Below, piece after piece: positions 1 through 17,882 of a stretch of 64,000 bases of DNA; position 1 is the stretch's first letter; every line of letters begins with the position of its first letter. The translations under genes and the position numbers were made by a program. The DNA is from Candidatus Undinarchaeota archaeon (GTDB lineage: Archaea > Undinarchaeota > Undinarchaeia > Undinarchaeales > UBA543). Where the stretch lies: NCBI GenBank assembly GCA_964636545.1, contig CAZWSR010000002.1, forward strand, positions 1 to 64,000, in the 5' to 3' direction. The notes beneath the pieces were generated by a model. It was not told the origin of the DNA. It worked only from the letters and a program-made list of their open reading frames with translations, and ran no database searches.

Positions 1-596
1 GAAACATCTTCTGGATTAGCCCATTGAGCAGGTGCTTTGTCAACTGTCTCTTCTTCCCATAATTTTGTTTCGTGAGCACCAGGTGCAATTACATTTACAT
101 CAACATTTTTTAATTCGTGTGCAAGTTCTTCAGTAAAACGAACAACAGCTGCTTTGGAAGTTGCATACGCTGCGTGAAGTGGTCTTGCATAAGCTGCTCC
201 ACCACCAGAAATATTAATGATTTTTCCGCGTTCAGAGTTTTCAAGTTTGGAAATAGCTGCTTTGCAACAATTCACCGTTCCAAAAAGATTAACATCTAAA
301 ACACGGCGCATGTTGCGGATTTCAGAATCAACAAGTGGTTTTGTTGGTCCCAAAATTCCTGCACAATTAACAAGCACATCGACATTTTCAATTTTATCAA
401 AAACTTCAACAACCCGCTCATATTCAGTAATATCACAAGAGAAAATCTTTGTGTTTGGGCCAATTTTCTGAACGGCATTATTCAAGTTTTCTTCATTTCG
501 TGCAATTAAAATAATTTCAAAGCCACCGCCGTGCAGTGCTTTGGCTATTATTTTCCCAATTCCACCGCTTCCGCCAGTAATTACTGCTGTTTTCAT
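1..596 (-). CDS. SDR family NAD(P)-dependent oxidoreductase (runs off the window edge)
   Basis: Not in the ORF track. Manual translation from ATG at 596 gives MKTAVITGGSGGIG (TGxxxGIG), VNCAG and YATSK (YxxxK). Confidence 0.9.
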   Translation of the reverse strand, partial: MKTAVITGGSGGIGKIIAKALHGGGFEIILIARNEENLNNAVQKIGPNTKIFSCDITEYERVVEVFDKIENVDVLVNCAGILGPTKPLVDSEIRNMRRVLDVNLFGTVNCCKAAISKLENSERGKIINISGGGAAYARPLHAAYATSKAAVVRFTEELAHELKNVDVNVIAPGAHETKLWEEETVDKAPAQWANPEDV

Positions 597-617
597 GTTT
601 TTTTATCCTTTTGTTTA

Positions 618-680
618 AGGTTTCAGCCCTCGGCCCTCAGCCATCAAGACCTGAGGGCTGACTGCTGACAGCTGACACCT
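618..680 (-). repeat. 63-bp heptamer-periodic hairpin element, copy 1
   Basis: Minus strand reads AGGTGTC AGCTGTC AGCAGTC AGCCCTC AGGTCTT GATGGCT GAGGGCC GAGGGCT GAAACCT. It is 56/63 identical to 16514-16576. Confidence 0.9.
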
Positions 681-684
681 ATTT

Positions 685-1665
685 TCAAACATTAACCAAC
701 ACCTTTGAACCATCAAAATCAAATCTGAAACGAACTTCAGACAATCCTTGTTTGTACATTGCATCTCTGAGTTTGTCTTTGTCTTCTGCATAGAACATTA
801 AGAAACCGCCACCGCCAGCACCAACTAATTTGCCACCAAGTGCTCCGTTTTCCATAGCAACATTATACCACTCATCAATTTTTGGATTAGACATTGCGCC
901 TGAGCGTTTTTTCTTATTCTGCCAATGAATGTCCATTAGCTCTCCAAGTTTTTCAGGGTTGCCAGATTCAAGTGCAAGTTTGCTTTCAACACCAAGCTCC
1001 TTGACTTTGTGAAGATTATTTATCATTGCTTCTTCGTCCTGTTTGCTTTTGTCATCTTGTTCTTTGAGAATAGAGCCAGCACTTCTGGAATAATTTGTAA
1101 AGAATAAAAGTAGATTGTCGTCAAGTGTATCCATGGTTTTCTGTGACATCTTTACGGGTTCTGGTTTTACTGTTCCATCTTTTTCAAACGTGAATGAAGT
1201 TACTCCACCAACTGAGCATGCAAACTGATCTTGCTTGCCAATTGGTTCCTTTAGAATATCAATTTCAATTTTGCACGCTTCTTCTGCAAGCTGTCTTGCT
1301 GATAGTTTTTCCCGCTTGTATAAATGTAATGCATTTAGCAAACCAACTGTAAAACAGCCAGATGAACCAAGTCCAGTGCCGGCTGGGATGTCTGCCATGC
1401 TTGCAACCTCAATACCAGACTCAATATTTGTTAATTTTAGTGCTTCACGAATAATTGGATGCTGTAGTTCGGCAACATTTGAAACTTTTTCGTGTTTGGA
1501 ATAGTGCGCAGTAATGTCCTTGTCAAAGGTTTTGTGCAAGCTAATGTAAACATACTTGTCAATTGCAGCGCTTATTAGGAAACCAGTGTGTTTTGAGTAG
1601 TATGACTCAAGGTCTGTTCCGCCGCCGCCAAGTGTTATCCGTAAAGGGGTTTGTATTATAATCAT
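685..1665 (-). CDS. GHMP sugar kinase, D-glycero-D-manno-heptose-7-phosphate kinase (HddA)-like
   Basis: PLRITLGGGGTD, PAGTGLGSSG, GKQDQ and GAGGGG motifs. Confidence 0.85.
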   Translation of the reverse strand: MIIIQTPLRITLGGGGTDLESYYSKHTGFLISAAIDKYVYISLHKTFDKDITAHYSKHEKVSNVAELQHPIIREALKLTNIESGIEVASMADIPAGTGLGSSGCFTVGLLNALHLYKREKLSARQLAEEACKIEIDILKEPIGKQDQFACSVGGVTSFTFEKDGTVKPEPVKMSQKTMDTLDDNLLLFFTNYSRSAGSILKEQDDKSKQDEEAMINNLHKVKELGVESKLALESGNPEKLGELMDIHWQNKKKRSGAMSNPKIDEWYNVAMENGALGGKLVGAGGGGFLMFYAEDKDKLRDAMYKQGLSEVRFRFDFDGSKVLVNV

Positions 1666-1698
1666 TGTATTGAAACCTGTTAATCTGATTTAAAAGAT

Positions 1699-2391
1699 TT
1701 ATGAAGTGCTGAGATACTCCTCCAACTGCCTAAGCCCTTCTGGCTCACCAATTTCGTAAAATCTTTCTGAAACTTCATAAGCAAGAAGTTCGCGTTTCTC
1801 AATAAGTCCTTGTAGGAAATCTTCCATTTGAACAACAGTATTCTCAGGAATTTGCTGAATTAATGATTTTTTGAAAATAGAGAGGCCGTAATCAACATGT
1901 TTTATGTCAGGAGTAGGATTTTTCTTTTCATATTTCACAATTAAACCATCCTCAACTTTGAAATTGCTCTTGTGATAATTCAAATCATTTTTGTAAGCAG
2001 TAACTAATGCAGATTTATTTTGCTGATTGAAATGCTCCATAACAGCTGAATAATCAATTGTAAGATAAGAATCTCCATTAATTACAAAAAAAGTGTCTTC
2101 TAGGAGGTTTTCTGCTTTCTTTAGTGCTCCTGCAGTCCCCATTAGGTTCTCGCCTTCGTCACTATACTGGATTTTTACTCCAAACCGAGAGCCATAGCCA
2201 AAGTAATCAATAATTTGCTGGCCCTTGTAACCAATACAAATAACAATGTCAGTAATCCCATTTTTCTTGAAAAGTTCAATTTGATGTTGCACAAATGGTT
2301 TCCCATTAACTTCAATCAATGCTTTTGGAATCTTCTCAGTAATAGGACGCATTCGAGTAGCTATTCCGCCAGCAAGTACAACTATTTGCAT
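1699..2391 (-). CDS. Sugar-phosphate nucleotidyltransferase (HddC-like)
   Basis: LAGGIATRMRP..PKAL, GTAGAL and NGDSY motifs; adjacent to the HddA-like kinase. Confidence 0.85.
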   Translation of the reverse strand: MQIVVLAGGIATRMRPITEKIPKALIEVNGKPFVQHQIELFKKNGITDIVICIGYKGQQIIDYFGYGSRFGVKIQYSDEGENLMGTAGALKKAENLLEDTFFVINGDSYLTIDYSAVMEHFNQQNKSALVTAYKNDLNYHKSNFKVEDGLIVKYEKKNPTPDIKHVDYGLSIFKKSLIQQIPENTVVQMEDFLQGLIEKRELLAYEVSERFYEIGEPEGLRQLEEYLSTS

Positions 2392-2436
2392 TATAGATTA
2401 ATCTCCAGTTTTCTGGTTTTTAAGAATTGTGAAGTG

Positions 2437-3399
2437 TTAAATCTTGAAAGGTTTCTTAAGCCAAAGCAGTCCACCAAAAATATTCATAATGTAATTCAAA
2501 AGTAGAATCATTATTGAAAAGGACACTGCAGAAGTTGATGAAAGGCCAAGTAAGGTGAAAAGAAGTATCAAAACAGCGTCGCGAGTACCAATTCCTGAAA
2601 ATGAAATAGGTAGTGCTTCAACAAGTGTTGTGAATGGAAGTATCAGCAAGATCATGAAATACGAAATTGGAATCCCTAGTGCCATTGCTCCGAAATAAAG
2701 TGAAAGGAAAGCAAGAAGCCAAGACGAAATTGTTGAAAGTGCAAGAGAGATTGATGGAGCAGGAGTTTTGATGAAATGAAGTACAGTTGAATAAAACTCA
2801 TCAAATGCAGTTTTCATTTTAATATGGAATCTGTCTGGAACTAAAAAGTAAAAGAACGGCCTAAGCATTTTTCTCATAAAGTTTTTGCGAGTAAGGAGGA
2901 AAAGTCCGATTGTAAAACAAATTGCAAAAACAACCATTACCCTAACAAAAAAAGAAGTTGCACCATAAAGATTTGAAAATGTTAAAACACAAATAACTGC
3001 ACCGACTAACATCAAACCAATATCAAAAATTCTATCAATTAAGATTGATGTAAAACCGCGGACAAGCGGCATTCCTTTTTGCTTGAGGTACGCTGCTCTT
3101 GAAAAGTCACCAAGACGAGCAGGCGTAATTGATCCAATAAAATATGAAATAAGAACAACCTTGAAACTTTCAAGAAGTGGGTAGTGGAAATCCAGATTTT
3201 TCAAAATGCCTTGCCACTTATATGCTTTGATAAGCATTGTAGGAATTAATAAGAGAACTGCAATGCAGAAATAATACAAATTAATTCCCTTGAATTCCTG
3301 CCAAATTGATAAAGGACCAACACGATACAGAATATATGCAAACAGTGAGACTCCAATTATTGGAAGTACTCTTGAAAGGGTGCTTCTTAGTTTAGTCAT
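2437..3399 (-). CDS. Lysylphosphatidylglycerol synthase-TM / UPF0104 flippase-like membrane protein
   Basis: Multi-TM; TPARLGD..R, DRIFD and PISFSGIGTRD motifs. Confidence 0.8.
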   Translation of the reverse strand: MTKLRSTLSRVLPIIGVSLFAYILYRVGPLSIWQEFKGINLYYFCIAVLLLIPTMLIKAYKWQGILKNLDFHYPLLESFKVVLISYFIGSITPARLGDFSRAAYLKQKGMPLVRGFTSILIDRIFDIGLMLVGAVICVLTFSNLYGATSFFVRVMVVFAICFTIGLFLLTRKNFMRKMLRPFFYFLVPDRFHIKMKTAFDEFYSTVLHFIKTPAPSISLALSTISSWLLAFLSLYFGAMALGIPISYFMILLILPFTTLVEALPISFSGIGTRDAVLILLFTLLGLSSTSAVSFSIMILLLNYIMNIFGGLLWLKKPFKI

Positions 3400-5605
3400 A
3401 ATTGACCTTGAAAACTTTTATTTCATCTCCATAAGTTTGGACAAACTCAAAATGATCAAGATTTTGCCCATTAAAGAGATGTAATTGAGTTAACATATTA
3501 TTTTCCAAATGTTCAGGAAGGAAAATGGCAGAACGGAATGATGAGTCAACATAGAGTAACCCTGGAATAGCGCCTTCATCTGGGTTTTCAGAAATATATG
3601 CATTTCCTTCATTAATGTAAAAAATCCTTTGTAGTGGTTGAGAAGTATACCCTTGATTGAGAGTTCCAGAGATTCCATCTTCTTTTAGATTAAGAAGAAT
3701 GCTTGTTTCAGAATCAAGAGGATAAACTAAAACCGTACCAGAAGCGGTGTTCTTGGCTTCAGACATGCTGAGGAAAAGATAGTTTTCTCCTTGGCCATTT
3801 GCAAGGAAACTGATTGCACCATACTTGTTTAGGAGATCACTGCTTGTGTAGAAATAAGACACATTATATTTGCCAAGACGCTCCACAGCAAGAGCTTCAT
3901 CCGTTGTTGTGAAAGCAATTGCTAGGTCGTGGACGTGTCGAGAGTTCTGACTTCCATCTGCAACAGAAGGACGTTTACCAACAGCAGTCATTGAATGTCC
4001 TGGGTCCCACCAAGAAGCAAAAATCGCATCCTTTGGTGTCTCATCTCGTGCCCAATATAAGAAATCAAACCAATTCTGCCCAAGAGATGGACCAGATTGG
4101 CCGGCAGACAATCGACCATATGTATAAAAGGGTGGACCAGTTTGTGCGCCTTGCGCAATGGCGATATTGGGTAATGCAAATATCAATAAGAATAATGAAA
4201 GGCCGATAATAACTGAAACAACCGGTTTTTTAGCTGAGATTTTAGACACTGCAAATGCAATGGAAATCCCTGCAAAAATCGCAAGTGGTAACGCCACCAT
4301 TGTCACAAACCTTGTTGCCTTGAAAGACATAAAAAATGTTGCAGCAAGCCAAAGTGAGAAGAAAGCAACATGGTGCATATTCTTTTTTAGCTTTTTCCAC
4401 AAGCCCAGTGGAAGTAATAGAAGGAATCCTAAAGACAAGAGAACAGGAGCAATGTGCAATCGTGCTAGAATTTGACGTAGGTTTGCAGGATTCATTTCAG
4501 CTACGGTTTTGTAGACATTTCTAACAGACTCGCCTTCCATAGATGTTGAAATAACCTCTGTGACCTTGAGATTTCTAGATACAGTTATTGCTGAAAAGAT
4601 ATTTACAGAACCAAATCCCCTAGCAATACCAATAATAAGAACTCCAAGAACAATTACAATAACAAAACACACATATTTCTTCCAGTTTTCTGAAAAATGG
4701 TTTTGAACTAGTGAAAAAATTGATGGTTTGTCGATAAGATATTTTTGAAGAACATTGAATACAAAATAAAATCCAACAAGTCCAAACATAAGAAGTGGAG
4801 CAAATTTATACGCATTCCATGCAAGTCCAAAGAGCCCTAGACAGGCTCCGCCAATGAACGCATACAAAAAGGACTCAGAGTCCCACGCCTTTGCAAAGAA
4901 ATAGAATGTAAACACAGTGAAAAAAGCAATAACTGCGTCACTGTCTGCGAAACCTGAAACACTACGTGTTATGAAAGAGGAAGATAGAGTTAACACAAAA
5001 CCAGAAGCCAGCCCAGCGTATGGCCCGAAGAATTGTTTGACAAGTAGAAACATTCCAAGAACAGCAAGCACACCGAAAATTGCAGGAGTCCAGCGATGCC
5101 ATACTAGAAGGTTGGGTGCAACGAATCTTCCTACAGCTTTGTAAGAATATGCAGAGAAATAGGGGTAAAATTCCTGATAGGCTCTACCACCCATTGGAGC
5201 ATCATGCATCGTATCCCATGCAACTAAATCATAACCAGGAGGACAATCTGCAGTATTTGGAATAGCATCATTTAACTTTTCATTGTAACAGACCTTTGTG
5301 TCGCCTACATAACCATGATCATACACATTTTCTGCGTGCCTGTAGTGCCAATATGGATCCATTGCAGACAAAGAATTCTCATAAATCCCTGTATATTTTG
5401 ATTCAGGAGTGAAAAGAACCTTTCCTGAAAAAAGTAAAAGCACAATAAGAAGTCCATAAATTATGAAGTTCTTGTGGTCTTTAAGCCATTTTCCTGCTTT
5501 CGAAAGATCAAACGCCATTTCATCATCGGAAGATTTATCGCGATTGAACTTTCCTTTTATTTTTGAAAAACTAAAGGACATACTGTCCTCCCCCTCATTT
5601 GCCAT
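3392..5605 (-). CDS. aglB: Oligosaccharyltransferase AglB (STT3 family), paralogue 1
   Basis: DPYWHYR, DSD, TVAE, WWDPG (WWDxG) and DLLNK (DxxK) motifs; multi-TM N-terminal domain. Alternative start at 5611. Confidence 0.92.
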   Translation of the reverse strand: MANEGEDSMSFSFSKIKGKFNRDKSSDDEMAFDLSKAGKWLKDHKNFIIYGLLIVLLLFSGKVLFTPESKYTGIYENSLSAMDPYWHYRHAENVYDHGYVGDTKVCYNEKLNDAIPNTADCPPGYDLVAWDTMHDAPMGGRAYQEFYPYFSAYSYKAVGRFVAPNLLVWHRWTPAIFGVLAVLGMFLLVKQFFGPYAGLASGFVLTLSSSFITRSVSGFADSDAVIAFFTVFTFYFFAKAWDSESFLYAFIGGACLGLFGLAWNAYKFAPLLMFGLVGFYFVFNVLQKYLIDKPSIFSLVQNHFSENWKKYVCFVIVIVLGVLIIGIARGFGSVNIFSAITVSRNLKVTEVISTSMEGESVRNVYKTVAEMNPANLRQILARLHIAPVLLSLGFLLLLPLGLWKKLKKNMHHVAFFSLWLAATFFMSFKATRFVTMVALPLAIFAGISIAFAVSKISAKKPVVSVIIGLSLFLLIFALPNIAIAQGAQTGPPFYTYGRLSAGQSGPSLGQNWFDFLYWARDETPKDAIFASWWDPGHSMTAVGKRPSVADGSQNSRHVHDLAIAFTTTDEALAVERLGKYNVSYFYTSSDLLNKYGAISFLANGQGENYLFLSMSEAKNTASGTVLVYPLDSETSILLNLKEDGISGTLNQGYTSQPLQRIFYINEGNAYISENPDEGAIPGLLYVDSSFRSAIFLPEHLENNMLTQLHLFNGQNLDHFEFVQTYGDEIKVFKVNYD

Positions 5606-5653
5606 GCACATTGGTTAAAAAACTGCATTAATAAAGATTATGATTGCTGAGGA

Positions 5654-7828
5654 TTATGAAGTAAATTTGAAAAGTTTTATCTCTCCACCAAAATCTTTCA
5701 CAAATTCAAAATGCTCTAAATTTTGTCCATTGAAAAACTGTAATTGAGTTAAAAGATTTTTTTCAAGATTTCCAGAGAGTATGAATATCTCACCATATGA
5801 TTTAGAAACAATTAGAAGTGGATCGGAGGGTTCTGCATCCGCTTTTTCAGATAGATAAGGAGACTCATCAACAAAATAATACAGGCGTTTTATCTCAGTT
5901 GTGGTTGGCCCTTGTTTGATTAAAGCAGTCCATGACTCACCATTGAAATTAAGAAGGAGTGTGGAAATACTATCGAGAGGATAAGTATAGACGCCACCAG
6001 ATGGCGATTGTTGAATTTCAGATAGACGAGCATATGGGTAAGAAATGGATTGACCAGTGTTGAGGAAGGATATTGAAGTGTATTTAGAAAGTAAATCAAC
6101 ACTTGTGTAGAAATAAGATACATTGTATTTACTAAGGCGCTCCACAGAAACGCTTTCATCGGTTGCTGTAAATGCAACGGCAAGATCATGAACATGATAA
6201 TCATTTTGACTTCCGTCTGCAACAGAGGGTCGTTCTCCGATTGCAGTCATTGCATGTCCTGGATCCCACCAAGAAGCAAATATTGCATCTTCAGGTGTGT
6301 TTTCACGAGACCATTTGAAAAAACTCCCCCAGTTCTGGCTGAAAGTTGGAGCAGCAGTTGAAACTGTTGAAAATATTGAAGAGATATAAGACGGTCCTGC
6401 AGGAGCCCCTTGGTATTGTGGAAGGTTTGGAAGGAAAAGTAAAATTGAAAAAAGCAAAATAAAAATAACAAGGATTGTTGCTTTTGACTTTATTTTTATG
6501 AAAGAGGAGACAGCAAGCCCAGTAAGTAAGGAAAAAGGAAGTGCTAGCATGATAGAAAATCTCATTGCTTTTAGAGACATAAACAAAACAGTAATTGTCC
6601 AGAATATTAGGAAAAATAAAGAATGATACTTACTTGAAAACTCTTTTCTGTTAAATAAAAATAATGCAAAAAACATCGAGATAAACAAGAATGGAGCAAT
6701 ATGAAGGATAAAAATAACTTTTCTGAAAGACATTGAAGACAATTCATCTACTGTAGAATACACAGTACGAATTTCCTCTGTGCCAGCACTTCCAACAACT
6801 TCTTGGGCTTTTAATTGTGTAGATGTTTTGAGAACTGAAAAAATATTTATGTGACGGACGCCTTTCAAAAAGCCGATAAGTGCAAAGCCGATAAAGAATA
6901 TTAGTAAGAGAATTGCATATTTTTTCCAATGTTTTTTGAAATGACCTATAGTGAGTTGAGGGATTTTTTTGAGTTTTTTGAAATTAAGACCAAGGTTGAA
7001 TATAAAGAAAAAGAATGCATAGGAAAGTATCAAGATTGGAACAAATTTGTAAGAAGACCAAGCGAAACCAAACATCCCGAGGAAAACTCCACCAATGGCA
7101 CCATACAACCACGATTCCTTGCGCCAGGCAAGTGCGAAGAAGAAGAAAGTGAAAACAGTGAAAAATGCTATGAGCGCGTCAGTATCTGCAGAACCAGAAA
7201 CACTTTTAAAAATTGAAAGAGCAGTAGTAGAATAGAAAAAAGCAGACGCAAGTCCAGCAATTGGATTGAACAATTCTTTGATTAACAAAAATGCACCAAG
7301 GATTGTTAAAAGACCGAAGAAAACAGGAGTCCAGCGATGCCAAACTAAAAGACTAGGTGCAAAAAACTGGCCAAGATATTTGTAAGAATATGCTGAAAAA
7401 TAAGGATAGAATTCCTGCTCAATTTCACTACCAAATGGGGCATCGTGCATTGTATCCCAATACACTTCCTTGCCATCAACAAGTCGGATTTCATCACCAA
7501 CATAACCATGATCCAACACATTTTTTGCGTGCCGATAATGCCAATAAGAATCAGTCGAAGAGAATCCTTCCTCGAGCCCATCTGTGAATTTTTCTTCTGG
7601 TTTAAATCGGATATATCCAGAGAATATGAGAAGTAACGCAAGTGCGAGATAAACTAGAAGCTTTTTATTTTGTTTGAGCCACATTGTCTGTTTGGAAAAA
7701 TCAACAGTAACATATTCGCCTGGTTTTTTATCTTCTTTTTTGGCATTAGAGATAAAACTGGTGTCAACACTCAGATTGCCATGATGTAAAACGTTCTCCT
7801 CTTCTTTATCCCCCTCAGCCATGAGCAT
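5654..7828 (-). CDS. aglB: Oligosaccharyltransferase AglB (STT3 family), paralogue 2
   Basis: DSYWHYR, DTD, TVDE, WWDPG and DLLSK motifs; collinear with paralogue 1. Confidence 0.9.
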   Translation of the reverse strand: MLMAEGDKEEENVLHHGNLSVDTSFISNAKKEDKKPGEYVTVDFSKQTMWLKQNKKLLVYLALALLLIFSGYIRFKPEEKFTDGLEEGFSSTDSYWHYRHAKNVLDHGYVGDEIRLVDGKEVYWDTMHDAPFGSEIEQEFYPYFSAYSYKYLGQFFAPSLLVWHRWTPVFFGLLTILGAFLLIKELFNPIAGLASAFFYSTTALSIFKSVSGSADTDALIAFFTVFTFFFFALAWRKESWLYGAIGGVFLGMFGFAWSSYKFVPILILSYAFFFFIFNLGLNFKKLKKIPQLTIGHFKKHWKKYAILLLIFFIGFALIGFLKGVRHINIFSVLKTSTQLKAQEVVGSAGTEEIRTVYSTVDELSSMSFRKVIFILHIAPFLFISMFFALFLFNRKEFSSKYHSLFFLIFWTITVLFMSLKAMRFSIMLALPFSLLTGLAVSSFIKIKSKATILVIFILLFSILLFLPNLPQYQGAPAGPSYISSIFSTVSTAAPTFSQNWGSFFKWSRENTPEDAIFASWWDPGHAMTAIGERPSVADGSQNDYHVHDLAVAFTATDESVSVERLSKYNVSYFYTSVDLLSKYTSISFLNTGQSISYPYARLSEIQQSPSGGVYTYPLDSISTLLLNFNGESWTALIKQGPTTTEIKRLYYFVDESPYLSEKADAEPSDPLLIVSKSYGEIFILSGNLEKNLLTQLQFFNGQNLEHFEFVKDFGGEIKLFKFTS

Positions 7829-7853
7829 GAATAAGTTGTATAGCTAATAAATG

Positions 7854-8996
7854 TTATGTTTTCAAAAGTTCTTTTAACAAAACTGTTGCGTACGAGCCTT
7901 TTTGCAAATCAAATTTAACTGTTACAGAATTTTCATCTGATTCAACTGAAAAATTCTTGATTTCAGCAAGCCATTTGCGGGTTCCGCCACTTACGCTTGC
8001 TTCTGGAAACTGCTTGATTCGTAAATCTTTTTGAGTTAGATTGTCTTTTTCAATGATGCTGATTTCTTTTTCAGTGAGAGTAGAATCGTATCCAACAAGA
8101 TTACCTTCTCCTTCAAGAGATTCGCCTTTTTCTAGTTTTTCAGAAAGAAGTTGGTTGAAAATATTCGACTGGTATGCGTGAGTGAACAGCTTGTAAATAT
8201 TTTTGCTGAGCCGCTTGAATGCTCCAACAAAGTCAGATGGGTGTTGGATAAGTTGGTTAATAAGTGCGTTTTCAAATCGCATGAATCGTGGGAATTGTTT
8301 GAAGGTTCCCCAGTTTTTTGCCAAATCTTCGCGAGCTTCTTTTCCTTCTGGTTTTTCTTCAGCAGTTGTTGCTGTCAAGAAGGTTTTGCAAGCGTCTTCC
8401 ATTTTTCCTTGGAGTAGGTATTTGCCAATTAGATGATTGTTATGCCGCATTCCAAATCGCTGTTGCCCGAAAAAGTTTGGAAGTCCACCAAGTTTTTCCA
8501 GTTCCTTGAATGTTTCCTTGCAGGACTTGGCTGCTTCTTCTGGGTTTTCAACATCAGTTAATCTAATTGTGAATCTATTTCCCCAAAGATCTCCGAGTGC
8601 TAATTTCTTATCAAATGCTTCAAAATCACCAATTGTAATATCTTTTGTTCTGAAATTTGCTAATCGTTCAACTGGAATTTTCCAAGCTGAGATTTTCTGA
8701 GCAGTGAGTGCGTATTTGTCTTTTGTTCCAGCATAGGTTACTCGTTTCCTGGAGACGCCGCAGAATGAAGCTATGTTTTTGAGAACTGTGTCTTGATTCC
8801 AATCTCGTTTTACTAAAGTGAATTTAATGTATTCTGAATTTAATTCTTTTATAGTTGGGTCTGGCTCTAAACTAGCAACAGAACCGTCTGTTAGAATTTC
8901 TTGAACAATGAAATCAGTTGGCTCTTGTTTGAACTTGCCGCTGAAGCCAGGTGATTTTGTGGCGTTTTGGGTAATTCCGAATATTGAATAATCCAT
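7854..8996 (-). CDS. truD: tRNA pseudouridine(13) synthase TruD
   Basis: DFIVQE, YAGTKDKYALTAQ, GNRF, PNFFGQQRFG and GSYAT motifs. Confidence 0.95.
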   Translation of the reverse strand: MDYSIFGITQNATKSPGFSGKFKQEPTDFIVQEILTDGSVASLEPDPTIKELNSEYIKFTLVKRDWNQDTVLKNIASFCGVSRKRVTYAGTKDKYALTAQKISAWKIPVERLANFRTKDITIGDFEAFDKKLALGDLWGNRFTIRLTDVENPEEAAKSCKETFKELEKLGGLPNFFGQQRFGMRHNNHLIGKYLLQGKMEDACKTFLTATTAEEKPEGKEAREDLAKNWGTFKQFPRFMRFENALINQLIQHPSDFVGAFKRLSKNIYKLFTHAYQSNIFNQLLSEKLEKGESLEGEGNLVGYDSTLTEKEISIIEKDNLTQKDLRIKQFPEASVSGGTRKWLAEIKNFSVESDENSVTVKFDLQKGSYATVLLKELLKT

Positions 8997-9346
8997 TAAC
9001 CTAAAAGTTTCAATCCCCCAGTAACTTTGTCAATATCAGCTTCAAGAGCAGGACCAATTCCAACTGCTGTTTTTGTTCCAGCAGGAATTTCAGTGTGTCC
9101 AGCATCTGTGATTAAACAAGCAGGTAGGCCACGGTCTTTTGCTGTCTGGAAATATTGAATAAGTTCTTGTTCATTAGCAACTTCTAGAACAACTTTCTTC
9201 ATTCCTTCTTTCAGCCAGGTATTCCCTGTTTCTTTTGCTTTAACATACGCCTCAACACTAGCGTGCGCTCCCTGCGCAACTGCCTTGCCTTTGCTAAGAT
9301 TGAGGTCTTTTCTCAAAAGAATTGCTTGTTTATATTTGAGATCCAT
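8996..9346 (-). CDS. pth2: Peptidyl-tRNA hydrolase Pth2
   Basis: KGKAVAQGAHA, DAGHTEI and GIGP motifs. Confidence 0.95.
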   Translation of the reverse strand: MDLKYKQAILLRKDLNLSKGKAVAQGAHASVEAYVKAKETGNTWLKEGMKKVVLEVANEQELIQYFQTAKDRGLPACLITDAGHTEIPAGTKTAVGIGPALEADIDKVTGGLKLLG

Positions 9347-9375
9347 GATAAAATTAAGAAATTGCTAGTTTAAAC

Positions 9376-11334
9376 TTATTTCCCTGCCAATTCTTTCGCC
9401 TTTTGAGCAATAAATTCAGCAGACAGTGCGAAATATTTCACTAATTCCCAAGAACCACCAGATTCACCAAACCTGTCTGGAACCCCAATCATTGCAAACT
9501 TTTCAGGAGCAACTCCTGCTTCCAATAGTGCTGCTGCAACACGGTTTCCAAGCCCGCCTTTCTGATGCTCTTCAGCTGTTAGGATTATTTTTGTTTCTTT
9601 TCCAGCTGATGAAAGTGCATTATTATCTAATGGTTTGAGTGTGTGCATATTAATTATTCTTGTTTCAAGTCCAAATTCTTCTTTCAAAATCCAAGCAGCC
9701 CGCATTGCTTCTGGAACTTCTGGACCGCAAGCAACAATTGTCAAATCCTCATTTTCTGATTTGTAATCGCTTGCTAATTTGGTTTCAAATGCATCAATGA
9801 AATTGTCTTTTGCTTCACGATATCGGATAATATTCGCTGTTCCGAATTTGTAAGGAGTAGAGTCAGTTGTTACAATTGGTGTCGATTCTCTTGCATATCG
9901 AATATAACAAGGTCCTTCAATATCCAGAATCATTGTTTTGGATGCTTTTTTAGTTTCAACAGAATCGCAAGGCACAAACACATTCATGTTTGGCAAACCA
10001 CACATCTGGAAAATATCTTCAAGTGCTTGATGGGTTGCTCCATCAGGTCCAACAGAGACACCACCATGTGCGCCAGTGATTTTTACATTGAAATTTCCAT
10101 AGCAGATAGTTGTTCTGATTTGGTCAAGTGCTCTACCAGCTGAGAAAACAGCATAAGTTCCGAAAATTGGAATTTTTCCTTCTTTTGCAAGACCAGCTGC
10201 AACCGCGGTTCCGCTCTGTTCTGCAATTCCCATACTTAGGAAACGAGGATTTCGCTCTGGTTTGTCCTTGTTGAATTGATTAATACAAATTGATCCAGAA
10301 ATATCAGCACCAAGGCAGATAATCCGCTCATCATCGCCAATATCAATTAAGCATTCTCCAAACCCTTTGCGAGTTGGCTTCATTTCTGCTTTCATATTGT
10401 CCTGCTCATTCCACCAATAATTTTTTGAGAATTTTGGAATCATTCCATCAACTTTCTTATCTATTTCTTTTTGGTAATCTTGTGCAATTTTCAAAAGTTC
10501 ATCAATTGGAAGTTCGACACCAAGTTCTTTAAGTGCTGTTTCAAGTTCTTCCCGGTTTGGAGCTTTGCCATGCCAGCCAGCTTGGTCTTCCATATATGAA
10601 ACTCCCTTGCCCTTGATTGTTTTTGCAAGAATAACAGTTGGCTTGTCAACTACGGTTTTTGCTTTTCCATAGCCATCTACAATTTGTTGCATGTTGTGGC
10701 CATCAAGTTCAATAACATTCCAACTAAATCCTTCATATTTTTCCTTTAGCGGCTGGATATTCATTACATCAGAAACATTTCCATCAATTTGAAGATTATT
10801 AACATCAACAATTGCAGTTAAATTATCAAGTTTGTAGTGAGCAGCTTCCATAACAGCTTCCCAAACTTGACCTTCTTGCTGTTCTCCATCACCCATTAAG
10901 CAGTAAATTCTGTGATCTTTCTTGTTTAGTTTTCCAGCAAGAGCCATACCAACAGCAATACTCAAACCCTGACCAAGCGAACCAGTTGATGCTTCAACGC
11001 CTTCAAGTTTTAGCCAATGTGGGTGGCCTTGGAACTTGCTTTCAAGTTTTCTGAGCTTCATCATTTCCTTGATATCAAAATAACCAGAATAACCAAGCGC
11101 TGTGTAAAGTGCGGGTGCTTTGTGACCTGCTGAGAATAAGAAACGATCGCGGTCTTCCATATTTGGATTCTTTGGATCATGATTCATTGCATTCAGATAA
11201 GCGCCTGCAACTAAATCCATACAAGAAAGTGAGCCACCAGAGTGTCCAGAACCAGCAGCATGTAGAGCAACTAGCATATATGCTCGCATTTCATTTGCTG
11301 CTTTTTCCAGTTCTTCTACAGTATATTTCTTCAT
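9376..11334 (-). CDS. tkt: Transketolase (N- and C-terminal sections fused in one chain)
   Basis: SGHSGGSLS, STGSLGQG, GDGE..EG (ThDP motif), GIAEQ and DGATHQ. Confidence 0.92.
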   Translation of the reverse strand: MKKYTVEELEKAANEMRAYMLVALHAAGSGHSGGSLSCMDLVAGAYLNAMNHDPKNPNMEDRDRFLFSAGHKAPALYTALGYSGYFDIKEMMKLRKLESKFQGHPHWLKLEGVEASTGSLGQGLSIAVGMALAGKLNKKDHRIYCLMGDGEQQEGQVWEAVMEAAHYKLDNLTAIVDVNNLQIDGNVSDVMNIQPLKEKYEGFSWNVIELDGHNMQQIVDGYGKAKTVVDKPTVILAKTIKGKGVSYMEDQAGWHGKAPNREELETALKELGVELPIDELLKIAQDYQKEIDKKVDGMIPKFSKNYWWNEQDNMKAEMKPTRKGFGECLIDIGDDERIICLGADISGSICINQFNKDKPERNPRFLSMGIAEQSGTAVAAGLAKEGKIPIFGTYAVFSAGRALDQIRTTICYGNFNVKITGAHGGVSVGPDGATHQALEDIFQMCGLPNMNVFVPCDSVETKKASKTMILDIEGPCYIRYARESTPIVTTDSTPYKFGTANIIRYREAKDNFIDAFETKLASDYKSENEDLTIVACGPEVPEAMRAAWILKEEFGLETRIINMHTLKPLDNNALSSAGKETKIILTAEEHQKGGLGNRVAAALLEAGVAPEKFAMIGVPDRFGESGGSWELVKYFALSAEFIAQKAKELAGK

Positions 11335-12521
11335 GATTCAACAAAGTTCTTAAGCCTTTTAAGCCCTTCTGTGATTTCTTCCTGTGAAGTGGCATATGAA
11401 AACCTTATGTATTCTTGTTCTTGTCCAGGATTCTTTGGTCCAAAGTGAGTATCTGCCAAAACCGCTACTCCGTGGCCCAAAAGCATCTTCCTGAACTCCT
11501 CAGAATTAGCTGCTCCAACTTTTGCACAAGCTTTTGTAACATTAGGCCAGGCATAGAAAGCACCACCTGGAGAAAGGCATGAAACCCCATCAATTTCATT
11601 TAATCCATTAATGATTAGGTCTCGGCGCTCCTTGAAACTGTCAGTCATCAGCTGAGTTGGACCTTGTGGACCATTTAATGCTTCAACAGCTGCCCACTGA
11701 ACAGGGTGTGGAGCACAAGAATCAGTATTAGTCATCCATTTTGCAAAATGGTCTGCAAGATGTTTGTTATACGCGTAGCCTAGTCGCCAACCAGTCATTG
11801 CATAGCTCTTTGAAACACAATCAACTACAATTGCATGTTCTTCCATTCCAGGAACTGAAATTATAGATTCAAATCGCCCATCATAAACCAAACTTGAATA
11901 AACTTCATCAGAATAAACCCAAATATCATTTTCAATTGCTAGTTTTGCAATTTCCTCTAGCTCTCGTTTTTTCAATACATTGCCAGTTGGGTTGTGTGGA
12001 GAGTTAAGAATGAGTAATTTTGTGTTACCATTGATGCTTTCAGCAAGATCATCAATGCTGAATGAAAAGGCGTTTTCTTCCTTGAGTGGAATTGGAACTG
12101 GTGTAGCACCACAAGCACGGATTTGCGATTCGTAAATTGGAAAACCAGGATTTGGATACAGCACTTCATCTCCAACCCCATAATCAGTTGTACTCAAAAT
12201 TGTCCAGTAAATGAAAGGTTTGCCACCGCAAGCAGTTGCAACGTGTTTTGCTTCTGCTTCAATGCCACGAGTTCTTGAAAAATAATTTGCAGCAGCTTCA
12301 CGGAGCTCTTTTATTCCAGCTGAAGGTGTGTAGCCAGTTTTCCCATCTTTGATTGCTGTGATTGCTGCTTGTTTGATGTGCTCTGGAGTGTCAAAATCTG
12401 GCTGGCCAATACAAAAATTCACAATATCATCGCCCTTCCTGAGCCGTTTGTTAACTTCTGCAAGAACAACGAAAGCGTTTTCTGTTCCTAAATTAGCTGT
12501 TCTATTGGATATTCCTGCCAA
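11331..12521 (-). CDS. PLP-dependent aminotransferase class I/II (aspartate aminotransferase-like)
   Basis: GQPDF, NSPHNPTG, DEVY and SKSYAMTGWRLG motifs. Confidence 0.92.
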   Translation of the reverse strand: MAGISNRTANLGTENAFVVLAEVNKRLRKGDDIVNFCIGQPDFDTPEHIKQAAITAIKDGKTGYTPSAGIKELREAAANYFSRTRGIEAEAKHVATACGGKPFIYWTILSTTDYGVGDEVLYPNPGFPIYESQIRACGATPVPIPLKEENAFSFSIDDLAESINGNTKLLILNSPHNPTGNVLKKRELEEIAKLAIENDIWVYSDEVYSSLVYDGRFESIISVPGMEEHAIVVDCVSKSYAMTGWRLGYAYNKHLADHFAKWMTNTDSCAPHPVQWAAVEALNGPQGPTQLMTDSFKERRDLIINGLNEIDGVSCLSPGGAFYAWPNVTKACAKVGAANSEEFRKMLLGHGVAVLADTHFGPKNPGQEQEYIRFSYATSQEEITEGLKRLKNFVES

Positions 12522-12660
12522 ATGTATCTCCCCTTTTTTGTAGATAATAGGCTTCGAACATTATAAAACTTGTGGGAGTGACAAGTGTAATGCTTTGTTA
12601 AAAAAGGGAAAAGACCAAGAAGTGATAAAATAAATAAAGGGGTTATTCGAGAGAATTTCT

Positions 12661-13320
12661 GTGGTAAGAATATTAGCTTCTGCAAAAAACAGTTTCAAAG
12701 ACTTTTTATTTAATTTGGAGACTTGGAAAATTGGAGTGTTTGTTGCAGTTATTATTCTTTCATTGGTTTTTATTGTTGTGTGGGTAATAAACTCAGCAAC
12801 AGCATTTGTTAACTGGAGAATACTGGGACTTTATGTTGTTCTGACACTTTTGCTAACATTTTCAAGAATGTCTCGATTTACAAAAGTTGGAATAAAGTTT
12901 TCGTATTTTTTGCTGTTCATGATAACGATTACACTTGGACCACTGACTGCGATTGTGTTGAGAGTTATTTCAGTTCCAATACGATTGTGGATGTTTTTAG
13001 CTGACTTGCCATTCAAGAGTTTCCTGAAAACAAAAGAAGACTATATTTTCAAACAGTGGGCGTACAGTGCTCTTTCAATTTTCATAATTTGGTTGTTTGT
13101 TAAAATTATTGGAGTTGGTGTTGTTGTTTCAAATTTGAGTTTGTACTATTTGATACTTTATGGTGGCTGGACAATTGGATTGTTGGTTTTGCATATCCTA
13201 TTCCCACGAGATTCTTTAACAAGATATTTTATTAATAGCGGAGCTGGGTTTGTGTTTAATTGGTTCTTAGTAACAAGTATGGGACGGTGGTTGTATGGTT
13301 ATTTGAATGGGTTTATTTGA
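12661..13320 (+). CDS. Hypothetical multi-pass membrane protein
   Basis: 219-aa ORF with several hydrophobic segments that fills the gap. Confidence 0.6.
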   Translation: MVRILASAKNSFKDFLFNLETWKIGVFVAVIILSLVFIVVWVINSATAFVNWRILGLYVVLTLLLTFSRMSRFTKVGIKFSYFLLFMITITLGPLTAIVLRVISVPIRLWMFLADLPFKSFLKTKEDYIFKQWAYSALSIFIIWLFVKIIGVGVVVSNLSLYYLILYGGWTIGLLVLHILFPRDSLTRYFINSGAGFVFNWFLVTSMGRWLYGYLNGFI

Positions 13321-14326
13321 TTCCAAGAGTTTGATTAGTCTTCTCCATACTCTCTTCTTTACTCATTTCACTGCACATTGCGCGAATACAATCAATATTT
13401 TCAGGAATAACAATACTTTCTTGTGGAATTGCTTGGAAGAAATAAAGTTCATTTCCCTGAACTCCAATTGAATCTTCCCAAATTAAGTTTTCATACATAT
13501 CATATCTTGGACGACCAAAGTCGCGAGCAAATTCCATAAGCTCTGCAGTTGAAGTTAGTCCCTCTCCTGAATTAACCATAAGCAAGCGTGGTGTTTTCTT
13601 GAAAAGTTCTTTGACTTCTTCTGCTGAAACTTCTTTATTTAATTCAATCATTAATGAATGTGCGTGCATGAAAGTGCTTGAAACTTTGAATGCGCTTGTT
13701 ACAATATTCAATTCTGGAAGAACTGTTAGCACGTCTGGGCCATGATGACTTGGAACAGTGATTGGGTTTGGAACAATTCCGTCAATTGGTCCGCTTTTTG
13801 AACTTCCAGGATCTGAAGCTCGTCTAACAAGAACAACTCTTGCTTTTTTTACTCCATAATTCTTGTCAAGAACATTCAAAACTCTGCTAAGTCCAGTTGT
13901 GTTGCAAGAAACAACTCTAACATTTTGTTTTCCTTTTGCTGAATCATAATTTGAGCCAGCATTGAAACTCTCGCCAATTGCATCGTGCTTTTCTGCACCC
14001 TGATAAATTGCTTTGATGCCTTTTGGCTCGTAATATTTTTCCTTGTTTTCTGCGCCGAATTTCTTTGGAGCACAATCAATTACAATATCGCACTGTCCGA
14101 GAAGATCGTTAATATCGCCAACAAGCTCAATGCCTGCTTCTTCGAATTTGGATTTGTTTTCTGGAATTCCGCAGAATAGTCTGTAACCTTTTTTGATTGC
14201 ATTTTTTGCTTCCCAAGTAGGTCTTGTCTTTGTGACACCGACTAATTCCATGTCATCCTGCTTAGAAACAGCATCTGCAACGCGTTTTCCAATTGTTCCA
14301 TATCCATTAATTGCGACTTTTATCAT
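13313..14326 (-). CDS. gap: Glyceraldehyde-3-phosphate dehydrogenase, archaeal type II
   Basis: GYGTIGKRVADAV, VVSCNTTGL and PSHHGPDV motifs. Confidence 0.96.
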   Translation of the reverse strand: MIKVAINGYGTIGKRVADAVSKQDDMELVGVTKTRPTWEAKNAIKKGYRLFCGIPENKSKFEEAGIELVGDINDLLGQCDIVIDCAPKKFGAENKEKYYEPKGIKAIYQGAEKHDAIGESFNAGSNYDSAKGKQNVRVVSCNTTGLSRVLNVLDKNYGVKKARVVLVRRASDPGSSKSGPIDGIVPNPITVPSHHGPDVLTVLPELNIVTSAFKVSSTFMHAHSLMIELNKEVSAEEVKELFKKTPRLLMVNSGEGLTSTAELMEFARDFGRPRYDMYENLIWEDSIGVQGNELYFFQAIPQESIVIPENIDCIRAMCSEMSKEESMEKTNQTLGIK

Positions 14327-15576
14327 TGTGAATCTCCTTCGGCGCCCCGGTGCTCCGGCGCCCCTTGTTTCTCAGCTGCTTTTTCAAGTGCTGCAAGTGC
14401 CCAGAGTTTAATTCCAGCTAAGTGAGTTATGCAAGCACCTCCGCCAGTGCTGATATGAGTTATTTTGTCTTCTAAACCAGCTTTTGTGATTGCAATTGCA
14501 ATGTGACCACCGCCAACAACTGAAAAAGCATCTGCTTCTGCAATTGATTTGACAATTTCCATTGTTCCTTTTTCAAATTGGGGTTCTTCAAATACACCAG
14601 CTGGACCATTTGCAATAATTGTACCAGCGTTTTCAATAATGTACTTGTACCTGCCGATTGTTCCGTTTCCAATATCTGCAACTTTGTAAGGGAGTGGCAT
14701 TTCTGAAAGTGAAACTTCAAATCGTTTTCCTTGTTTGTCAAGTGCAAGATCAACTGGAAGCTCAATTTGTGAAGAATATTCAGCTAATAGTTCTTTTGCA
14801 GTTTTGATGTGATCGTCATAGTTTTCAACATAATCTTTTCCTGGAACATCGTAGCCCTTTGCTGAGAGAAAGACAGAAGCTACAAGACCAGAAGTTAAGA
14901 TTTTGTCCATAACACCAGTTTCAAGGAATGTTTTGATAACTCTGAGTGAACTTTTCACTTTTGCTCCGCCAGCAACATAGATAGCTGGCTTCTTGTTTGA
15001 CTCTAAAACTTTTGCCATAACCTCAACTTCTTCCTGCATAACTCGTCCTGCACAAGAAGGTAAAGTTTCGCAGAAACCAACAAGTGATGGCTGGGACCTG
15101 TGAGCTGTTGCAAAAGCATCACTTACAAAATAATCAGCTAATGGAGTTAAGGATTTGACAAAGTGTGTGTTTGCTTGAACATCTGAAGGTCTTTTTAGTA
15201 ATTCTTCAGAAAGGAATCTGACATTATCAAGTAAAATAACTTCTCCGTTGCTCATTAATTTTATTGCGGATTGAGCAGTTGGACCAATTACATCAGGAAT
15301 ATATTTTATATCAACACCAACGTGTTTTGAAAGCTCGCCTGCGTGTTTTTCCATGTTTGTGAAATCATATTCAGAGCCAGGCCGACCTTGGTGAGACATT
15401 ACAACAACTTTTGCACCTTTTTGAGAAAGTTCTTTGATTGTTTTTGAATGGATTTTCATTCGTCTGACATCCAAGAACTCGTTTGTTTCAGGGTCAATTG
15501 GGCAGTTTATATCAACTCTAACAAGAGCTGTCTTGCCACTGAAGTCAAAATCATCCATAGTTTTCATTCCGTTCAT
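14323..15576 (-). CDS. pgk: Phosphoglycerate kinase
   Basis: RVDIN, SHQGRPG, DAFATAHRS, GGAK, NGPAGVFE and STGGGA motifs. Confidence 0.96.
   Translation of the reverse strand: MNGMKTMDDFDFSGKTALVRVDINCPIDPETNEFLDVRRMKIHSKTIKELSQKGAKVVVMSHQGRPGSEYDFTNMEKHAGELSKHVGVDIKYIPDVIGPTAQSAIKLMSNGEVILLDNVRFLSEELLKRPSDVQANTHFVKSLTPLADYFVSDAFATAHRSQPSLVGFCETLPSCAGRVMQEEVEVMAKVLESNKKPAIYVAGGAKVKSSLRVIKTFLETGVMDKILTSGLVASVFLSAKGYDVPGKDYVENYDDHIKTAKELLAEYSSQIELPVDLALDKQGKRFEVSLSEMPLPYKVADIGNGTIGRYKYIIENAGTIIANGPAGVFEEPQFEKGTMEIVKSIAEADAFSVVGGGHIAIAITKAGLEDKITHISTGGGACITHLAGIKLWALAALEKAAEKQGAPEHRGAEGDSQ
14341..14364 (-). repeat. GC-rich 8-mer tandem patch (GGGGCGCC GGAGCACC GGGGCGCC) at the pgk/gap junction
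   Basis: Read directly. It is followed by the AAGGAG RBS of gap and encodes part of the extra PGK tail QGAPEHRGAEGDSQ. Confidence 0.6.
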
Positions 15577-16232
15577 TATAGTCCTCCGCAGATGTCAAGC
15601 AAAACTGCTCGTGGATCTGCTGATTTTGTGAATGCGCTAGCAAGAAGAACTCCTTCAACACCAAGTTCAATTGCTTTTTTAACATCAGAGCCATTTGAAA
15701 TTCCTGCTCCGCACAAAACCTTTACTTCTGGATTAACTTGCTTGATGTTTTCAACTGTTTTTGTAACAACTTCTGGTTTTGCTTCTGAAACTGAAATGCC
15801 TGAGCCAATTAGTTCAGGTGGCTCAACTGCGATATAATCTGGTGAAAATTCTGCAAGTGCCTTGGCTTCCTCATCGTCTTGTGCACAAACAACACTAATC
15901 ATCTCATTTTCTTTTAATCTCTGGATTGTTGCACCAATTTGCATGTGTGGAATTCTTCGTTCTGAGTGATTTAGAATTGTTCCAATTGCGCCAGCTTGTT
16001 TTAATGCTTCAACAAGGTTTGAGCCAGTGCCAGAACCTGCTGGATTTGGATCAGCGTGTTGTGCAATTGTCTCAATAAGTGGAGAAGTTTTTAGAATATC
16101 AACTGTTTGTGGAGCCACGATTATCTGGACTCCTGTTGCTTCTTTGGATTCTTTGCAGATTTTGCCAAGATTCTCTGCATTAACCCCTGAAGCTTCCTTG
16201 TACGCCTTGAAATTAAGAATTACTAAACCCAT
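15576..16232 (-). CDS. tpiA: Triosephosphate isomerase (archaeal type)
   Basis: NFKAY, AQH, NHSE, AVEPPELIG, GAGIS and LLAS motifs; start placed at MGLVILN. Confidence 0.95.
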   Translation of the reverse strand: MGLVILNFKAYKEASGVNAENLGKICKESKEATGVQIIVAPQTVDILKTSPLIETIAQHADPNPAGSGTGSNLVEALKQAGAIGTILNHSERRIPHMQIGATIQRLKENEMISVVCAQDDEEAKALAEFSPDYIAVEPPELIGSGISVSEAKPEVVTKTVENIKQVNPEVKVLCGAGISNGSDVKKAIELGVEGVLLASAFTKSADPRAVLLDICGGL

Positions 16233-16348
16233 TTTTAACAACAAATAGTCCTGAATTTGCTTTAAAAGGATTATGTAAATTGGATTTATAGGGGAAATGA
16301 GAGAAACAATAACCTTTATAACCAACCCCTTTGATACAAAACCCTACT

Positions 16349-16510
16349 ATGACAACATGCACAAGCTGTGGAGCAAATCTAGAGCAGGAAAAGGATAAGG
16401 CAGAGTTCAAGTGCCCAAAATGTAGTGAAACTGTTATTGGACGATGCCAGCGATGTAAGAAGCTTTCTAGAGAGTACACTTGCTCAAAATGCGAATTTGT
16501 TGGACCATAG
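16349..16510 (+). CDS. Small double Zn-ribbon protein (DUF1610 / HVO_2753-like)
   Basis: Below the ORF-track cutoff. MTTCTSCG..FKCPKC..RCQRCKK..YTCSKCEFVGP; typical position upstream of aEF-1beta. Confidence 0.9.
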   Translation: MTTCTSCGANLEQEKDKAEFKCPKCSETVIGRCQRCKKLSREYTCSKCEFVGP

Positions 16511-16513
16511 ACC

Positions 16514-16576
16514 AGGTTTCAGCTGTCAGCATTCAGCCCTCAGGTCCTGATGGCTGAGAGCCGAAGGCTCATACCT
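16514..16576 (+). repeat. 63-bp heptamer-periodic hairpin element, copy 2
   Basis: AGGTTTC AGCTGTC AGCATTC AGCCCTC AGGTCCT GATGGCT GAGAGCC GAAGGCT CATACCT; homologous to the reverse complement of 618-680. Confidence 0.9.
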
Positions 16577-16595
16577 TAAACAAGAGGACAAACAA

Positions 16596-16913
16596 ATGGG
16601 GAGCGTAATTATTGTTTACGATGTTGTACCAAGCCAGAACGACCAGGCGGGTGCAGATATTGTAGCTGAAAATTTAAAAGCAGTCACAGTTTCGGGTTCG
16701 GGGCCAAGTGCCAAAGACGAAAGTGTGAATGAAGATTATTATTGCAAAGTTGGCGCAATTGAAGTGCAGGATTTTGTTTTCGGTACTAAGAAAGTTGTTG
16801 CAACTTTTGAAATTCCTGATGCGGGTGGAGCCCAGGATGCACTTGAAACTGTTTTGAATGCAGTTGAAGGTGTTAATACAATTACTTTTGTTACAGCTGG
16901 ACGACCGGTTTGA
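16596..16913 (+). CDS. ef1b: Translation elongation factor aEF-1beta (divergent)
   Basis: V.P...D, FVFG (usual IAFG) and PD.GG...LE..L..VEGV patterns; synteny with the DUF1610 Zn finger. Confidence 0.8.
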   Translation: MGSVIIVYDVVPSQNDQAGADIVAENLKAVTVSGSGPSAKDESVNEDYYCKVGAIEVQDFVFGTKKVVATFEIPDAGGAQDALETVLNAVEGVNTITFVTAGRPV

Positions 16914-16962
16914 GTTTGTTGACGGATTAATTATTTATAGAGAAGATACAATAAGAACAACT

Positions 16963-17520: not shown

Positions 17521-17882
17521 CACCAGACCACACAGAAATAAGCCAATTCTTTGATGAAATAATTCATATTTTGATTAAGATTACGCCAATGCATGCTGAT
17601 GTGCAGGATCATGTTGCTAAACTAAGGACTTCTATTGATCAGCACAAGGTGTTAGGTGACAAATATGCTGAAGCACTAGATCAATTAACTGATACTGACT
17701 TGGAGAAAATGGTTAGGTTTGTTGAAAGGCCGGGCGGACATCATCATATTGCGGAGTTGGAGAAGCTTGAGAAGAATTTTGGAATTGAAGCTGCTGGAAG
17801 ACAGTTTTTGAAACACTTTTACGACCACAACAAGAACCAGCTGATACATGCTGAAAAATTACAGCATGTTGCAAGGCACTAA
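17517..17882 (+). CDS. Hypothetical protein
   Basis: 121-aa ORF, translationally coupled to the previous gene. Confidence 0.6.
   Translation: MTPDHTEISQFFDEIIHILIKITPMHADVQDHVAKLRTSIDQHKVLGDKYAEALDQLTDTDLEKMVRFVERPGGHHHIAELEKLEKNFGIEAAGRQFLKHFYDHNKNQLIHAEKLQHVARH

Follow-up and report, generated by a model that had tools for sequence, protein, structure and literature searches.

The window is a stretch of 64,000 nt that forms contig C2 in our analysis of an archaeal genome assembly, here called G000 (0.84 Mb in 39 contigs, 37% G+C, 83% complete). Two long hairpins with arms of tandem 7-nt units lie in it, each in the spacer between two co-directional protein-coding genes. The features at the two spacers are as follows, where solo denotes a gene-less copy and family A is the sequence family defined below.

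688..1665, minus strand: GHMP-kinase-like ORF of 326 aa, upstream of copy 1
681..687, minus strand: TGA of the upstream gene (687-685), then the head of copy 1, four A-rich nucleotides (AAAT) before the AGG with which the palindrome starts
618..680, minus strand: palindrome of copy 1, a solo of family A; 63 nt, in which a centre separates four TCAG(C/G)nn units from four mirrored ones
597..617, minus strand: tail of copy 1, in which the TTAACCAA end motif takes the variant form TAAACAA, followed by AGGA as Shine-Dalgarno and by an A-run that reaches the ATG at 596-594
3..596, minus strand: SDR-like ORF, downstream of copy 1, truncated by the contig end
16331..16510, plus strand: Zn-ribbon ORF of 59 aa, upstream of copy 2, with its stop TAG at 16508-16510
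16514..16576, plus strand: palindrome of copy 2, a solo of family A, 63 nt
16577..16595, plus strand: tail of copy 2, composed of TAAACAA, AGGA as Shine-Dalgarno and A-rich sequence that reaches the ATG at 16596
16596..16913, plus strand: aEF-1beta, 105 aa, downstream of copy 2

The two copies are as alike as an earlier note on this DNA had reported (56/63 aligned positions identical), and the layout described there also stands. Copy 1 starts 4 nt after the TGA and copy 2 starts 3 nt after the TAG of the upstream gene, both lie in the sense orientation, and a shared tail carrying AGGA, 21 nt long in copy 1 and 19 nt in copy 2, leads from the hairpin to the next ATG. Each arm consists of four units, of which the conserved TCAG/CTGA cores are paired, whereas the variable positions for the most part remain unpaired in small internal loops. 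The centre measures only 3-10 nt and holds no four-helix-bundle ORF, which makes both copies the gene-less form. Among marine metagenome contigs (four independent sets, window positions 1-20000) no joint was found at either hairpin, with the contigs breaking at repeats. Contigs from these metagenomes skip or rejoin the window at 3042-3131, 17886-18060 and 18106-18233, and from 5616 back to 3450; the three skipped stretches look like ordinary sequence with no repeat array, and these joints away from the hairpins probably derive from related organisms.

The genome-wide pattern search that the earlier note had proposed reveals many more copies. A nhmmer profile built from ten full-length family-A copies matches 30 non-overlapping loci in G000 at a threshold of E<=1e-3, and runs of three or more CAGnnnn units occur 47 times in the genome as against 1, 0 and 2 times in three shuffles, an abundance far beyond chance. 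A family-blind scan recovered 74 long palindromes. The arms of 55 of these are periodic with 7 nt, and these 55 are nearly all intergenic and fall into four sequence families, namely A (TCAGC type, 15 palindromes), B (13), C (15) and D (12). The window pair belong to family A with its roughly 30 loci, and at least three other families of heptamer palindromes exist in G000. Members of these families also occur between convergent or divergent genes and beside tRNA genes.

Two additional palindrome types are visible, a CAGG/CCCGAT type and a GC-rich type. The GC-rich repeat family, with units of the CCGGAGC/GCGCCG type, forms palindromes at C3:57043-57103, C3:66309-66368 and C3:38785-38865 of G000, and it is present at the L37ae junction of the related genome G001 (L026 spacer) together with the TTAACCAA-AGGA tail of family A. 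One-armed family-A arrays lie in frame within coding sequences at G000 C7:27315-27350, C9:5621-5654, C1:30014-30053 and C1:29513-29548. One is in the C-terminal tail of an ORF that resembles a ribosomal protein, one in an ORF of 829 aa that resembles an aminoacyl-tRNA synthetase, and two are at the N-termini of small pilin-like membrane ORFs.

The full-length family-A copies share far more than their repeat units. They are 83-90% identical over about 90 nt, including the non-repetitive head and tail, although the number and order of the units differ among copies. All ten are oriented in the sense direction and end 17-22 nt before the next start, and in nine of them the hairpin begins within -2..+8 nt of the upstream stop. 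An outward-facing end motif, TAAC(C/A)A / AACCAA, flanks palindromes of all four families (12/15 of A, 7/13 of B, 8/15 of C and 3/12 of D), compared with 13% of control windows. AACCAA is found at -20..-4 of just 12/651 ATG ORFs in G000, and the motif therefore belongs to the elements and not to translation starts in general.

Evidence of what is copied comes from a pair of loci, C10:23341 and C6:45538, which have in common an exact run of 82 nt (AAGG, the hairpin and CCTTAACCAA, ending in AAGGACAAAAA) between flanks that are unrelated on both sides. The borders are sharp and carry no direct repeat, and this identical pair shows no target-site duplication. Because the exact run includes AAGGA, the Shine-Dalgarno is part of the copied block. 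At a second pair, C7:44359-44398 and C6:32491-32530, the right 40 nt are identical and extend through the ATG of two unrelated genes, whereas the left halves differ, which indicates that copies are mosaics. The peak of AGG-type motifs lies at -14..-9, in 34% of ATG ORFs, which places the AGGA of the tail where a Shine-Dalgarno usually lies; a motif search of the G000 assembly for the anti-Shine-Dalgarno at the 16S 3' end gave no match. The proposal that the hairpin carries its own ribosome-binding site thus stands for the exact 82-nt unit and for insertions into ancestral junctions without a spacer, but it does not extend to every copy. In G002 the empty sites corresponding to C3_57522 and C3_58874 have an AGAGG Shine-Dalgarno of their own, the tails of CAGG-type solos have no AGGA, and the ribosome-binding site is not always borne by the element.

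Two candidate traces of the insertion process were considered and rejected. An AAnAGG direct repeat does not qualify as a target duplication, as its variable base agrees in 5/10 copies and it is absent from the identical pair. The codons for KYLK upstream of two copies, which might have been transferred with them, are native, since the G001 and G002 orthologues already end in this way.

Orthologous junctions were compared in three relatives, two of the same genus (G001 and G002, with EF-1beta 83% and 74% identical to that of G000) and one of the same order (G004). Both window junctions are empty in G001; G002 lacks an insert at one of them (copy 1), as does G004 at the other (copy 2). Where G000 has copy 1, the genes overlap by ATGA in G001 and are joined as TAA then ATG in G002, and the gene order differs in G004. 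Where G000 has copy 2, a spacer of 2 nt is found in G001 and of 1 nt in G004, and a different heptamer-type insert of ~100 nt occupies the site in G002. Solos of family A or related to it are absent from G002, G004 or both at C3_43790, C3_44522, C3_57522 and C3_58874, as are the solos at C3_37448, C10_23347 and the V-ATPase B-D junction. The presence-or-absence test that the earlier note had outlined has therefore yielded empty sites within the genus, and these comparisons show that the unit was inserted between genes that formerly abutted or overlapped.

Occupied sites are also exchanged. At C3_43790, C3_44522, C3_58874 and the V-ATPase B-D junction, G001 holds a solo of a different family, with nearly the same tail at C3_44522 and V-ATPase B-D and the same insertion point at C3_58874. 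The replacement arrays match the arms of gene-bearing (loaded) cassettes, either G001's own or the CTAGGG cassette of G000. The junction at G000 C1:165016-165562 is occupied by a loaded TCAG cassette, whereas G001 (L259) has a TCAG solo in the opposite orientation and G002 (L260) a lone arm of the CTAGGG type. The promoter-like sequence flanking this junction is conserved among the three genomes, and the site looks like a hot spot or a case of cassette exchange. The next junction along has a loaded cassette in G001 and G002 and 10 nt in G000. Copies thus come and go and switch heptamer family among species of one genus, and loaded cassettes also move between these species. At the S15 junction (L252), where G000 has a full family-A solo, G001 has the GACCAATAGGA...ATG tail without the hairpin; this may be what a loss left behind, or the tail may have its native origin here.

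These comparisons bear on the alternative that the earlier note had offered, an mRNA processing or stability element. Under this explanation the hairpin would be selected by the host as an intercistronic structure that stabilizes the upstream transcript, marks a processing site or tunes translation of the downstream gene. The strong predicted RNA fold of copy 1, which with its flanks reaches -36.3 kcal/mol (z -4.26, 0/200 shuffles as good; copy 2 and its flanks -30.3 kcal/mol, z -2.25, 5/200 shuffles as good), would suit such an element, and so would the uniform placement of the ten full-length copies, all in sense between co-directional genes with a Shine-Dalgarno downstream. In addition, the stem of the bacterial relative discussed below, the 23S rRNA intervening sequence (IVS), is described as an RNase III site (PMC4990558). 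However, the congeners' junctions work without a hairpin where the genes abut or overlap, and family members sit between convergent or divergent genes and by tRNA genes or, as one-armed arrays, in frame within coding sequences. Mismatches on the mRNA strand comprise 43 G.U and 74 A.C, the opposite of what selection at the RNA level would produce. Compensatory changes were seen at 0/20 predicted pairs in family A, a count that is uninformative given the invariance of the paired cores. No intrinsic terminator (GC-rich stem plus T-run) was detected on either strand around the two copies. Rfam has no family at gathering score for either hairpin (the sole match in the window is a tRNA) and nothing at E<=10 around copy 2, and RNase III (PF00636) had no match in the 83%-complete G000. 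The mRNA alternative is thus unsupported by base-pair preference or covariation, and we regard it as unlikely.

The mobile-element reading is favoured by the additional copies, by the empty junctions of congeners and by copies that enclose a gene. The earlier note had pointed to a tie between heptamer dyads and bacterial genes for four-helix-bundle proteins of the TIGR02436 type and had suggested looking for copies around such an ORF. Four TIGR02436 genes were identified in G000 by profile search (E 3e-35 to 3e-30). All four also belong to PF05635 ("23S rRNA intervening-sequence protein"), a four-helix bundle, and each is enclosed by the two halves of an inverted heptamer array. Around the gene at C1:165074-165433 the arms are of the TCAG(C/G) type with the CCTTAACC end, as in the window hairpins, and the family-A profile matches both of them (E 8e-7 and 3e-5). 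Family-D arms surround the gene at C4:29965-30318, and the remaining two genes lie within one CAGG/CCCGAT-type and one CTAGGG-type array. The PF05635 proteins of G000 weakly resemble bAvd/DivGenRetAVD (E 1e-4 to 5e-7, below the cut-offs), and the closest relative of known structure is 2GSC, whose deposition has five chains.

The stretch from the left arm to the ORF has features of its own. A small hairpin (AAACTC, 4-5 nt, GAGTT) is followed by an A-run and by TTTATAAA about 30 nt before the ATG, for example at G000 C4:29880-29965 and C1:165434-165500. The TTTATAAA region resembles a BRE/TATA promoter of archaea, perhaps with an operator, and the promoter-like box and a similar small hairpin recur in most of 22 archaeal cassettes. 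The loaded form comprises, from the left, an array in which 4-5 units of 7 nt follow one another, the short hairpin, a BRE/TATA-type promoter, a PF05635/TIGR02436 gene of ~120 aa, and a mirrored right array with the CCTTAACC(AA) end. The solo form retains the two arrays and the CCTTAACC(AA) end and has in addition a short A-rich head and the AGGA tail. Since four genes lie between heptamer arms, one of them with TCAGC arms and the CCTTAACC end, the window hairpins can be read as gene-less copies, that is, as the arms and end of such a cassette without the ~450 nt in between. The earlier suggestion that they could be empty sites of a TIGR02436-type system is supported as regards the system, but gene-less copies is the more fitting term.

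With a probability of roughly 0.8, we consider the two window hairpins to be gene-less, non-autonomous solo copies of a heptamer-armed cassette, inserted between genes that once abutted. Two further explanations compete with this conclusion. Heptamer microsatellites might arise locally at permissive spacers, lengthen through slippage and form palindromes by folding back, without any transposition, an origin of the kind that was proposed for the STRR repeats of cyanobacteria. The variable number and order of units, the occupation of one junction by different heptamer families in sister species and the failure to find a transposase would all be accounted for in this way. Slippage would not be expected, however, to produce ten copies that are 83-90% identical through their non-repetitive head and tail, a pair identical over 82 nt with sharp borders, the same arms around a gene in the loaded form, or a common end motif on arrays of unrelated sequence, and we judge a purely local origin to be very unlikely. 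Palindromic elements of the REP/BIME type or derived from IS200/IS605 (PATEs), which a RAYT or Y1 HUH transposase moves by acting on single-stranded hairpins, would likewise be hairpin-based, dispersed between genes, oriented and free of target duplications, but this explanation is extremely improbable, as Y1_Tnp (PF01797) and the TnpB zinc ribbon (PF07282) have no match in the 83%-complete G000 although both searches were positive in control genomes (PF01797 in 6/14), the gene between the arms encodes a four-helix bundle and not an HUH enzyme, and REPs are not known to have a tandem 7-nt architecture.

The association of heptamer arms with this gene family extends well beyond G000. TIGR02436 genes were found in 8/31 related genomes searched (four in G000, three in G001, two in G002, three in G005, two in G007, one in G008, ten in G010 and one in G015) and in none of 14 more distant archaea. 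An inverted repeat, weak in a few cases, surrounds 22/22 full-length genes of the eight archaeal genomes. A period-7 score of 13/21 or more is reached at 17 of these 22 loci and, as the link to bacterial genes in the earlier note would predict, upstream of 66/70 bacterial PF05635/TIGR02436 genes, compared with 7.2% of random windows. The best period is 7 in all 83 arrays that score 13/21 or more. The bacterial loci span Bacteroidota, Chloroflexota, Planctomycetota, Acidobacteriota, Cyanobacteria and other phyla, and a TCAGC or TTAGC core as in family A is common among their arms. The element is established in both prokaryotic domains, because the archaeal copies carry archaeal-type promoters.

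Period-7 palindromes were seen in 6/8 genomes with the gene and in 1/9 without it, in samples of about 20-100 kb each from genomes that are related and incomplete. The exceptions are G005 and G015, which have the gene but yielded no palindrome in samples of ~100 kb and ~82 kb, and G004, which has two period-7 palindromes and no TIGR02436 gene that we could find. Heptamer class clusters on the protein tree, with 29 changes among eight domain-by-class groups as against about 50 in shuffled assignments. We do not take this co-clustering as a sign of binding, as co-inheritance suffices to explain it. For families B and C, with 13 and 15 solo copies, the 83%-complete G000 assembly contains no loaded counterpart, and any dependence of solo families on a cognate gene is putative.

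If the window hairpins are solo copies of this cassette, their conserved placement would follow from selection on a selfish element. The unit is copied as a block together with its Shine-Dalgarno, so the downstream gene retains a ribosome-binding site once stop/start coupling is lost. Copies would persist where they are neutral, namely just past a stop, in the sense orientation and with a Shine-Dalgarno before the start. The observed layout would then be what survives selection in a compact genome with translationally coupled genes. We infer that the element spreads by copy-and-paste without target duplication. Candidate routes include hairpin-promoted template switching, recombination by short homology or host enzymes, and an activity of the element-encoded protein. 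The lack of a target duplication and of a known transposase, the mosaic copies and the reuse of junctions fit template switching or short-homology recombination, and they would also fit an activity of the four-helix-bundle protein. Searches of the 83%-complete G000 for RVT_1 and for a phage-type integrase gave no match, as did those for Y1_Tnp and the TnpB domain, and the partner cassette encodes only the PF05635 protein. This protein, whose solved relative is pentameric, may bind to the phased heptamers in the arms of its own cassette.

The closest published relatives of the cassette are the ORF-bearing IVSs of 23S rRNA genes, for example in Coxiella burnetii and Leptospira. The IVS of Coxiella burnetii is described as having a 28-bp terminal stem and an S23p ORF and as being excised by RNase III; tandem heptamers beside the ORF differ in number between strains (PMC4990558). 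ORF-bearing IVSs are regarded in that account as selfish, with an origin and means of spread that it calls unknown (PMC4990558). PF05635 is reported to be related to Avd and 2GSC (PMC10053308). As in the IVS, an S23p/PF05635 gene in G000 lies in the loop closed by a long stem of terminal inverted repeats. Whereas the IVS is described as residing in helix 25 or 45 of 23S rRNA and as being cut by RNase III, the G000 elements, copies 1 and 2 included, lie between protein-coding genes. They further differ in having an archaeal BRE/TATA-like promoter and several heptamer families per genome, and the window elements differ in being gene-less and having a Shine-Dalgarno tail. The "23S rRNA IVP" is also listed among CRISPR-array-associated proteins in a large clustering study (PMC10910872), in which tandem heptamer arms might have been scored as CRISPR arrays.

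Other repeats resemble the element in part. As with MITEs and with REP/BIME elements and their RAYT partners, short palindromic non-autonomous copies far outnumber a gene-bearing form with the same ends, are dispersed between genes and vary in presence between close relatives. Unlike these, the G000 elements have no target-site duplication, no HUH transposase was found, the arms are tandem 7-nt arrays without a unique terminal repeat, and the partner gene encodes a helical bundle of 120 aa for which no catalytic activity is known. The STRR heptamer repeats of cyanobacteria, reportedly the subject of Mazel et al. in 1990 and of later work, are tandem intergenic heptanucleotides as well, some of which form hairpins between co-transcribed genes. 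STRRs are not known to have an associated gene, in contrast to the period-7 arrays that flank a PF05635 gene in G000 and at two cyanobacterial loci (L119 and L120). The likeness to Avd, the accessory protein of diversity-generating retroelements, is one of protein homology only and consists of the weak profile matches below the cut-offs; the G000 genes match PF05635 far better, and no reverse transcriptase was found in G000.

A broader proposal is tentative and, in its full form, doubtful. The PF05635 protein would be the active partner of a class of transposase-free mobile elements of bacteria and archaea, in which a ring of subunits would read the 7-nt units, one each, every paralogue would know the "code" of its own arms, and binding to the folded arms would drive copying into stop/start junctions. 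IVSs, STRR-like repeats and the archaeal hairpins would then be one system.

We found no description in the published literature of heptamer-armed cassettes outside rRNA or of their gene-less copies. New here are the family-by-family tie of solos to loaded cassettes within one archaeal genome, the orthologous junctions that are empty, the identical 82-nt unit that moved together with its ribosome-binding site, and the junctions at which one heptamer family has replaced another. For thirty years the PF05635 family has been without a function and intergenic heptamer repeats without a source, and the two are tied together here in one genome. This gives the PF05635 protein a candidate partner in its own heptamer arms and offers a small natural system for studying the spread of DNA independent of transposases. 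It also calls for caution, in that "structured leaders" and "intercistronic hairpins" in such genomes may be selfish inserts.
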